Of a stretch of DNA of 62,656 nucleotides, positions 54,001-57,000 are shown in pieces. The position numbers are program-made. Each line of letters opens with the position of its first letter. The stretch's first letter is position 1. Source of the stretch: a virus (lineage: Duplodnaviria > Heunggongvirae > Uroviricota > Caudoviricetes); IMG/VR virus record IMGVR_UViG_637000105_000002, one strand, 5' to 3'.

Positions 54001-57000
54001 TACCGCGATAAGTACGGCGGCACGGTAATGATTAAGGGCGTGGAGGAACGGCGCGTAACCTACCGTCGTGAAGGTTACGAATATGATTGCGTGATGCCTG
54101 TTTATCAGTTCCGGCGTGATTTTTCTCTGGTACAGACCGCGCCGCATAACGTGTCCACCAGCAACGCCAGGGCACGGGCAAACATCCAGAAGCTGAAAAC
54201 CATGATTAACGGATTCAGGGGTAAAAAATGAAACTGGCACCGAACGTAAAACAGCAGTCACGCGGCATAAAACACAAAGAAACAGAAGTCATTATTTTTG
54301 CGGGTAGTGATGCCTGGTCACACGCAAAACAATGGCAGGAACATGACGCGCGTATGGCCGGAGATAATGAGCCTCCTGTGTGGCTTGGGGAGCAGCAGTT
54401 ATCCGAACTGGATAAGCTGCAAATTGTGCCGGAAGGCAGAAAATCCGTGCGCATATTCAGGGCCGGATATCTTGCGCCAGTAATGATAAAGGCGATTGGT
54501 CAGAAGCTGGCGGCGGCAGGCGTACAGGATGCAAATTTTTACCCTGATGGTATGCACGGTCAGAAGGTGGAGAACTGGCGCGAATATCTGGCCCGTGAGC
54601 GCCAGAATCTTTCTGATGGTCTGGTCATTGAGCTTCCGGTAAAGCAAAAGGCGCAACTTTCGCAGATGGCGGACAGTGAGCGCGCGCAGCTGCTTGCCGA
54701 TCGCTTTGATGGCGTTTGCGTACATCCTGAAAGTGAAATCGTTCACGTATGGCGCGGCGGGGTATGGTGTCCGGTCAGCACAATGGAGCTGAGCCGCGAA
54801 ATGGTGGCGATCTATTCAGAGCACAGGGCCACTTTCAGCAAGCGCGTAATCAATAACGCCGTGGAAGCGTTAAAAGTTATTGCCGAACCAATGGGCGAGC
54901 CGTCCGGCGATTTGCTGCCGTTCGCCAATGGTGCGCTTGACCTGAAAACGGGGGAATTTTCCCCGCACACGCCGGAGAACTGGATCACCACGCACAACGG
55001 CATTGAGTACACGCCACCAGCACCCGGGGAGAACATCCGCGATAACGCGCCAAACTTTCATAAATGGCTTGAGCACGCAGCCGGAAAAGACCCGCGCAAG
55101 ATGATGCGTATATGTGCCGCGCTGTACATGATTATGGCGAACCGGTACGACTGGCAGATGTTTATTGAGGCCACCGGAGACGGCGGGAGCGGTAAAAGTA
55201 CATTCACACACATAGCCAGCCTTCTGGCAGGGAAACAAAACACGGTAAGCGCTGAAATGACATCGCTTGATGATGCTGGTGGGCGTGCGCAGGTTGTCGG
55301 GAGTCGTCTTATCGTCCTGGCAGACCAGCCGAAATATACAGGCGAAGGAACGGGCATCAAGAAAATCACGGGCGGCGACCCCGTGGAAATTAACCCGAAA
55401 TATGAAAAGCGTTTTACGGCGGTAATCAGGGCGGTGGTGCTGGCAACCAATAACAATCCGATGATATTCACCGAACGGGCCGGAGGTGTGGCACGTCGTC
55501 GGGTGATATTCCGGTTCGATAACATCGTAAGCGAGGCAGAAAAAGACAGGGAGCTACCGGAAAAGATCGCGGCTGAAATCCCTGTCATTATCCGCCGCTT
55601 GCTGGCGAACTTTGCCGACCCTGAAAAGGCACGGGCTTTACTCATTGAACAGCGTGACGGTGATGAAGCACTGGCAATAAAGCAACAGACGGATCCGGTT
55701 ATTGAGTTTTGCCAGTTCCTGAATTTTCTGGAGGAAGCACGCGGCCTGATGATGGGCGGCGGTGGCGATTCAGTGAAGTACACGACCAGAAACAGCCTTT
55801 ACCGCGTCTATCTGGCGTTTATGGCGTACGCAGGCAGGAGCAAACCGCTAAACGTAAATGACTTTGGCAAGGCTATGAAGCCAGCCGCGAAAGTTTACGG
55901 ACATGAATATATTACGCGGAAAGTTAAAGGAGTAACGCAGACTAACGCAATAACAACAGACGATTGCGACGCGTTTTTATAATTTGTTGCAATGGCTGTC
56001 TACCCTGTCTACCTGAGTAAAGAAAAATACATTTAATTCAGTACATTAACTTGGGTAGACAGCCTTTTTTTACTGTCTACCTACTATCTACCCTCTCTAC
56101 CTGATTTTACCTGAATCAGACAGGGAGGTAGATACGGGGTAGATAGTGGATAAAAGCACTCTACCCCACTGAAAGCCGCGCCATTACTGGCATGGTGGCC
56201 AGTAAGGTAGATAAGGTAGACAAGGGGAGGCACAACTCAAAACTTTTTAAACGAGGGGGTAAAAATAAAAATGCGCACATCAGGAAAACTTAATAATCAG
56301 AAGAAGCAGCATAACCGCGCCATTGACCTTACAGAGCACTGGCTGAGAGTGGCGATAAAAATCATCGACCGCAACACGGGGGAAGGATACGCGAAAGCAC
56401 ATCCCGACCTGATAAGCGCATTCATGACCACAGCGGCGGCAAACTTTGCCACGCTGACAGAATGGGAGATTGCCGAAGCGGAACAGGTAACAACCATCAA
56501 CGTTAAAACCGGAGAGGTGGAATCATGACAGCACAGATAGCAGCTTACGGGCGGCTGGTGGACGACCCGCAGGTAAAACAGACCAGCAAGGGCACACCAA
56601 TGACGCTGGCACGTATGGCGGTATCGTTGCCATGTAGTCAGGCGCAGGATGGGCAGGCTACGTTATGGCTATCGGTGATGGCATTTGGTAAGCAGGCCGA
56701 CTTCCTGGCTAAACATCAAAAAGGCGACGTTGCCAGCGTATCCGGCACGATGCAGGTCAGCCAGTGGACCGGACAGAACGGGGAAACGCGGCAGGGTTAT
56801 CAGGTTATTGCAGACAGCGTAATCAGTGCCCGTGCGGCACGTCCTGGCGGGAACAGACGCAAAACCACAGGCACACAGGGTAATCAGCCACCAGCGGGAG
56901 GCGATGACCCTTACGGTGATGATATTCCGTTCTGAGGGGGTGAGGATGGTACATGACCGCATAGCGGAGGAACTCGAGGCAAAAGGCTTTTACCGGAGGG

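Follow-up and report, generated by a model that had tools for sequence, protein, structure and literature searches.

What is the function of the cluster of short repeats that fills the gap between two co-oriented genes of a mobile island, directly behind the gene for the island's replication initiator? The window analysed here is the whole stretch of 62,656 bases, and a preliminary description of it had placed an iteron array at 55994-56222, right after the stop codon of a gene labelled primase/helicase, and had proposed the array as a candidate origin of replication. Answering the question requires identification of the island, a site map of the repeats, an assignment of the protein that is likely to read them, and a comparison with related islands and with origins of known function.

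The repeats lie within an 11,462-bp island (49736-61197) that is inserted between roxA/ycfD and phoQ and carries the core GGACATATTT at both ends. Megablast searching with the whole island retrieved three E. coli CFT073 chromosomes and strain ZH063 (NZ_CP014522.1) at 100.0% identity over 100% of the query. Island size, att core and insertion site all equal the published entry for EcCICFT073 (AE014075.1:1377749-1389210, 11,462 bp, att core GGACATATTT, site ycfD-phoQ, accessory gene perC; Table S1 of PMC6092414). With 100% identity to CFT073 along its entire length, the island is, judged by its sequence, EcCICFT073, and the window therefore contains the prototype Gram-negative PICI, a model E. 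coli phage satellite. The PICI hallmarks are all present, namely int, alpA, pri-rep, a PICI-specific att site, a size of about 11 kb and cos sites. The genes that precede the array encode a tyrosine integrase, an AlpA-type regulator, an Icd-like protein, a DUF4222 protein and a D5_N/DUF5906/Pox_D5 protein, and those that follow it encode an 85-aa ORF, SSB, PerC, a lambda-E-type major capsid homolog, a head-decoration homolog and small ORFs. The ORFs on either side of the array are those named c1495 (pri, 584 aa) and c1496 (85 aa) in PMC6092414, and the EcCICFT073 set of c1495, c1496, the capsid (c1499) and decoration (c1500) homologs, perC and two cos sites is the same here, without any difference in sequence. 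The features of the island that are needed below are as follows.

49736-49745, plus strand: attL core GGACATATTT, left end of the island (core and ycfD(roxA)-phoQ site as in Table S1, PMC6092414)
54228-55982, plus strand: Pri-Rep, c1495, 584 aa, with D5_N, SF3 helicase and C-terminal winged-helix origin-binding domain (Pfam D5_N, DUF5906, Pox_D5; TIGR01613)
56271-56528, plus strand: c1496, 85 aa, ORF, first gene after the origin
56525-56935, plus strand: satellite-encoded single-strand DNA-binding protein (Pfam SSB; PGAP annotation)
59510-59810, plus strand: EcCICFT073 cos.1, packaging site, separate from the origin (matched to the Fig. S5 sequence, PMC6092414)
60030-60330, minus strand: EcCICFT073 cos.2 (matched to the Fig. 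S5 sequence, PMC6092414)
61188-61197, plus strand: attR core GGACATATTT, right end of the island (exact decamer match)

Some further observations concern the surroundings of these features. A third exact att core GGACATATTT at 15480-15489, far outside the island, may be a chance occurrence, or a secondary or remnant att site. The presence of a third lambda-type cosQ/cosN site at 20484-20567 (GGGCGGCGACCT at 20520), about 29 kb upstream of the island and with 82-90% similarity to the cos sequences published for CFT073, points to a lambdoid prophage, perhaps a helper, in the same window. The 401-bp origin query has two matches in the ZH063 record (NZ_CP014522.1), as does the whole-island query in each CFT073 record; there are hints here of a second related island or an origin remnant in the ZH063 and CFT073 chromosomes. 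The DUF4222 gene (53932-54231) overlaps the start of Pri-Rep (54228) by 4 nt (ATGA) and is found upstream of the initiator in every island examined; its product may be a translationally coupled replication accessory protein.

Of the 20 TCTACC hexamers in the window, counted on both strands, 11 fall within 55999-56220, where the density outside the cluster predicts 0.03 copies in 230 bp (Poisson P about 1e-24). Elsewhere between the att cores there is a single copy, at 50666, and the next, at 62164, is outside the island. In 9-mer frames the array extends over 228 bp (55996-56223), essentially the span first described, and its six plus and five minus copies, all exact TCTACC, agree with the earlier count of at least ten copies in both orientations. 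Its position right after the helicase gene is also confirmed, as the first iteron starts 14 nt past the stop codon TAA (55980-55982) of the 584-aa initiator ORF (54228-55982), and the array takes up 228 of the 288 bp in the gap before the next ORF (56271). The 9-mer iteron is CTGTCTACC, also written (C)TGTCTACC; with at most one mismatch, 10 of the 11 copies fit YTRTCTACC, the remaining copy being CACTCTACC at 56157-56165. From left to right the array is composed of the following elements.

55996-56013, plus strand: iterons 1-2, abutting direct CTGTCTACC copies
56014-56053, no strand: left spacer, 40 nt, 78% A+T, probable DNA unwinding element (from base composition)
56054-56062, minus strand: iteron 3, inverted
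56073-56101, plus strand: iterons 4-6, direct, CTGTCTACC, CTATCTACC and CTCTCTACC
56102-56126, no strand: central 25 nt with the mirror axis (56109/56110), a short palindrome CTGATT/AATCAG and a degenerate twelfth site (CTGTCT)
56127-56146, minus strand: iterons 7-8, inverted, mirror partners of iterons 5 and 4
56157-56165, plus strand: iteron 9 (CACTCTACC), mirror partner of iteron 3
56166-56205, no strand: right spacer, 40 nt, G+C-rich (42% A+T), mirror partner of the AT-rich spacer, containing CTGAAAGCCGCGCCATTACTG
56206-56223, minus strand: iterons 10-11, inverted, mirror partners of iterons 2 and 1

The start-to-start spacings of the 9-mers (9, 49, 19, 11, 9, 34, 11, 19, 49 and 9) give the array mirror symmetry, with 10 of the 11 copies forming five pairs that all have their midpoint at 56109.5, and the unpaired sixth copy standing opposite the degenerate site, which retains CTGTCT only. 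With the cores left aside, complementarity between the two halves is 39%, compared with about 25% expected (p = 0.002), which weakly indicates that they may have arisen by an old inverted duplication. Part of the CTGAAAGCCGCGCCATTACTG block, CCGCGCCATT, recurs at 56315-56324 within c1496. Three other signals in this region were set aside. Matches to Rfam are to miRNA precursors, all below threshold, and arise because of the inverted repeats; the single-strand DNA fold z-score of -6.2 likewise reflects the inverted iterons only. A DnaA box candidate, TTATCCACT at 56145-56153 (minus strand), between iterons 8 and 9, matches the consensus TTATCCACA at 8/9 positions, and is rejected as a conserved part of the array and probably not functional, because it is lost in other alleles.

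The protein expected to read the array is the product of c1495. In a BLASTP comparison, Pri-Rep residues 141-573 align with residues 324-756 of P4 alpha at 41% identity over 434 aa (E = 1e-112), a region that covers the helicase and the origin-binding domain. Residues 488-576 match the P4 origin-binding domain, whose crystal structure is known (PDB 1KA8, E = 1e-6), and residues 194-432 match SaPI5 PriRep5 (7OLA, E = 4e-15). The earlier label of primase lacks the backing of a recognisable domain: Pri-Rep gave no match to a primase domain of the Zn-ribbon, Toprim or AEP kind, whereas P4 alpha matches Zn_Ribbon_Prim and Toprim_3. The name comes from TIGR01613, a family that covers the helicase part of the protein, which is annotated as "DNA primase family". 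Residues 1-160 have no Pfam family at E <= 1, and sequence searching of the PDB with residues 1-150 gave nothing meaningful. Residues 1-140 (54228-54650) match PHROG families only, phrog_2850 (unknown function) and phrog_864.

In PICIs the origin is reported to lie directly 3' of the gene for the replication initiator, and iterons have been mapped in E. coli PICIs (Fig. 2a of Fillol-Salom et al. 2018, ISME J, PMC6092414). In EcCICFT073 the sole intergenic DNA 3' of c1495 is the 288-bp gap that holds the array. The preliminary description had proposed cloning the region together with the primase gene and assaying replication, an experiment already published on identical sequence. According to the accessible text of PMC6092414 (Fig. 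2b), pKO3-blue, which is temperature-sensitive, yields colonies at the restrictive 44 degrees C once it carries pri-ori of EcCICFT073, the plasmid mutated in rep (pri) forms no colonies at that temperature, and deletion of ori leads to significantly fewer colonies, a reduction and not an abolition. The pri-ori, pri-delta-ori and delta-pri-ori constructs make up the plasmid set pJP2027-2029. In the same source the iteron sequences and the limits of the ori deletion are given in figure form, and the deleted segment presumably corresponds to 55996-56223. We conclude that the array is very probably the vegetative replication origin of EcCICFT073, which Pri-Rep binding, spacer melting and helicase loading would drive, and the proposal of a candidate origin is upheld by the identity of this DNA with an island whose origin, 3' of pri-rep, has been deletion-tested. 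The function of the array is thus already known, as the published origin of EcCICFT073, and the finding is not new. In the accessible text of PMC6092414 the mirror symmetry, the equivalence to P4 ori and the conservation of cores relative to spacers are not given, and PMC10111431, PMC11773190 and PMC9942202 hold no further data on the EcCICFT073 origin or on P4 crr. The additions made here are modest, and consist of the site map, the purifying selection that sequence comparison indicates for TCTACC, the ties of architecture and protein to the P4 replicon, and the lack of a recognisable primase domain. The origin matters in that it decides whether the satellite is amplified after induction of the helper phage and which initiator allele can drive its replication, and it therefore sets replication specificity and compatibility among co-resident islands.

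Conservation was assessed across complete genomes and homologous islands. The 401-bp region was found in 516 of 5,426 complete E. coli genomes, on the chromosome in every case, and 501 of the 5,426 (about 9%) match at least 80% of the query. Distant-mode searching of a phage database with the same region gave no match, so the array is not shared with the deposited phages at the DNA level. As for homologous islands, seven from E. coli, with gap identity down to about 77%, each retain the array, with 10-11 TCTACC copies at matching positions. Absence of the array from such islands, which the preliminary description had set as a refutation, is thereby contradicted. The core of 7-9 bp originally assigned to the repeats fits the present allele and does not hold across diverged islands, where constancy is limited to the hexamer TCTACC, and its three 5'-flanking bases shift from CTG/CTA to CCC/CCA. 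Invariant alignment columns among the seven islands number 57 of 66 in the cores and 62 of 157 in the spacers (Fisher p = 4e-11), and the nine variable core columns are accounted for by one copy that is moved and flipped in diverged alleles, plus one point mutation. This comparison provides evidence of purifying selection on the TCTACC core. The moved copy is the iteron at 56073-56081, which is on the plus strand here and in islands of about 78% identity is a minus copy 9 nt further upstream (L002, gap positions 82-90); the diverged alleles accordingly read + + [AT] - - + +, closer to the P4 crr unit. The block CTGAAAGCCGCGCCATTACTG (56169-56189) is almost invariant across diverged E. coli islands, and is far better kept than the AT-rich left spacer.

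Beyond E. coli, a Shigella flexneri gene homologous to c1495 (90% identity) has an array downstream in which TCTACC is retained. The layout also recurs, with other cores, behind more distant homologs in Serratia aquatilis (54%) and Morganella morganii (52%); these cores are TGTTCAC and TGTTCAT respectively, and each array is an unannotated origin (L010 3268-3560 and L011 2863-3150). The spacer that corresponds to 56014-56053 is AT-rich in all homologous arrays examined (78-89%). The two large spacers of Serratia are 86% and 49% A+T, asymmetric as in EcCICFT073, and those of Morganella are 89% and 78%. The Serratia and Morganella cores are P4-like, and the inner set of Morganella has grown to seven direct copies. 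In an alignment of the origin-binding domains, the proteins that go with TCTACC and those that go with TGTTCAY differ in the block GN..IVPR..RKYLYHAYLAYM. This difference would fit a change of specificity, an anecdotal observation because only two specificity groups are available.

The likely course of events at the origin can be outlined. Following induction of the island by a helper phage, the winged-helix domain at the C-terminus of Pri-Rep most likely serves to bind the TCTACC iterons, and the protein would oligomerise on the two converging iteron sets. It would then melt the 40-bp AT-rich spacer at 56014-56053 and load itself there as an SF3 hexameric helicase that encircles single strands, after which the host replisome would copy the excised circle. 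The properties of P4 alpha on which this outline draws are those reportedly established for that protein. We infer which Pri-Rep residues contact the iteron, that the left spacer melts and what each half does; the steps extrapolate from P4 alpha as a homolog and from SaPI Reps as an analogous case, the genetic need for pri and ori alone having been demonstrated. SaPI Reps are self-loading SF3-type helicases with a winged-helix C-terminal domain that reads iterons of 5-6 nt located after rep, around an AT-rich centre (PMC9371898). The SSB gene, two ORFs downstream of the array, agrees with the outline.

Other roles for the repeats have to be weighed against that of an origin. Since two co-oriented genes border the gap that the array occupies, since iteron-binding initiators often autoregulate, and since the 50-bp stretch just before c1496 (56224-56270) is highly conserved, the repeats might serve as operators for transcription of c1496-ssb-perC-capsid, or as the terminator of pri transcription. 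This is improbable: a scan of 55800-56400 revealed no sigma-70-like promoter and no plus-strand terminator, the ori deletion acts on plasmid replication in the accessible text of PMC6092414, and the architecture of the array equals that of P4 ori, a proven origin. We give almost no credence to a role of the repeats in packaging (as a cos/pac signal) or as arm sites for integrase. Satellites do bear repeated protein-binding sites for terminase and integrase, but the att cores (49736 and 61188) are about 5-6 kb from the array, cosN is absent from it, and the cos/pac reading is rejected because the published cos sites map elsewhere, at 59510-59810 and 60030-60330.

The remaining alternative accepts that the array contains an origin and narrows its extent. 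Only the left, P4-ori-like half (55996-56101) would be the true origin, and the right half (56127-56223) would be a crr-like cis enhancer, or a site for copy control or handcuffing, bound by Pri-Rep and left unmelted. The left half equals P4 ori element for element: both consist of two direct copies, an AT-rich spacer of 35-40 bp, one inverted copy, 10-12 bp and three direct copies. In the orientation of alpha, P4 ori reads + [10] + [44] - [21] + [11] + [10] +, with a spacer of 78-83% A+T, and the left half reads + [9] + [46] - [22] + [11] + [9] + (start-to-start). The right half ends like a P4 crr unit, in the same orientation relative to the initiator gene (+ [46] - [9] - here, + [44] - [9] - in P4). 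P4 reportedly requires both ori and crr in cis. The spacers differ in the sense expected for such a division of labour, with 42% A+T on the right and 78% on the left, and likewise 49% and 86% in Serratia; in Morganella, however, both large spacers are AT-rich (89% and 78%). We regard this narrower reading as possible and do not favour it. It is one live alternative, in which a crr-like right half refines the main explanation, an origin driven by Pri-Rep, and does not replace it.

The origin can be compared with those of other replicons. SaPI origins resemble it in having 6-12 short iterons just after rep, an AT-rich region between opposite-facing iterons and a winged-helix iteron reader (PMC9371898). 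The arrangement by which SaPI origins are recognised, at least two opposed iterons on each side of an AT-rich region just after rep (PMC9371898), is found here, with iterons 1-2 and iterons 3-6 on either side of the 40-nt, 78% A+T spacer; iterons 1-2 (plus) and iteron 3 (minus) bracket this spacer, and the array as a whole is plus at the left and minus at the right. The likeness to SaPIs is nevertheless distant, being restricted at the protein level to the ATPase region, and the iteron sequences are unrelated and SaPI hosts are Gram-positive. Plasmid iteron origins of the RepA/Pi/TrfA type (pPS10, R6K, F, RK2) also place repeated initiator sites beside an AT-rich unwinding region, but their iterons are 17-22 bp long and mostly direct, and their Rep_3-type winged-helix initiators recruit host DnaB through DnaA and DnaC. 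In EcCICFT073 the sites are 6-9 bp long and in both orientations, and the initiator is itself a D5/SF3 helicase, so the origin falls outside the Rep_3-type class.

The closest comparison is with P4. The analogy with P4 alpha drawn in the preliminary description is correct as regards the relatedness of the initiators and the placement of crr directly after the alpha stop, as the array here directly follows the Pri-Rep stop. It does not extend to P4 ori, which lies about 4.5 kb from crr: P4 has two separate cis sites where EcCICFT073 has one compact 228-bp array. The earlier remark that the core is unlike the P4 octamer proves accurate. The 9-mer is CTGTCTACC in EcCICFT073 and CTGTTCACC in the annotated type-1 repeat of P4 (NC_001609), with agreement at 7/9 positions, and the P4 type-1 iteron TGTTCACC is absent as a core here, where the core is TCTACC; P4 type-2 repeats are missing. 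The Zn-ribbon and Toprim primase half of P4 alpha is replaced in Pri-Rep by an unrelated 140-aa N-terminus. The satellites themselves also differ, EcCICFT073 being a lambda-dependent cos PICI and P4 a P2-dependent satellite with sid, psu and delta. The authors of SatelliteFinder note that P4 receives a partial PICI score on account of its integrase, AlpA and primase/replicase (PMC10085698). Tentatively, the EcCICFT073 origin could be viewed as two modules joined head to head, one of P4-ori type (AT-rich, melted) and one of P4-crr type (G+C-rich, unmelted), served by an initiator that would be a P4 alpha with Toprim swapped for an unknown 140-aa domain. If true, a PICI carries both cis elements of the P4 replicon within 228 bp. 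The architectural and protein link to P4 could guide mutagenesis of the two array halves and of the origin-binding domain.
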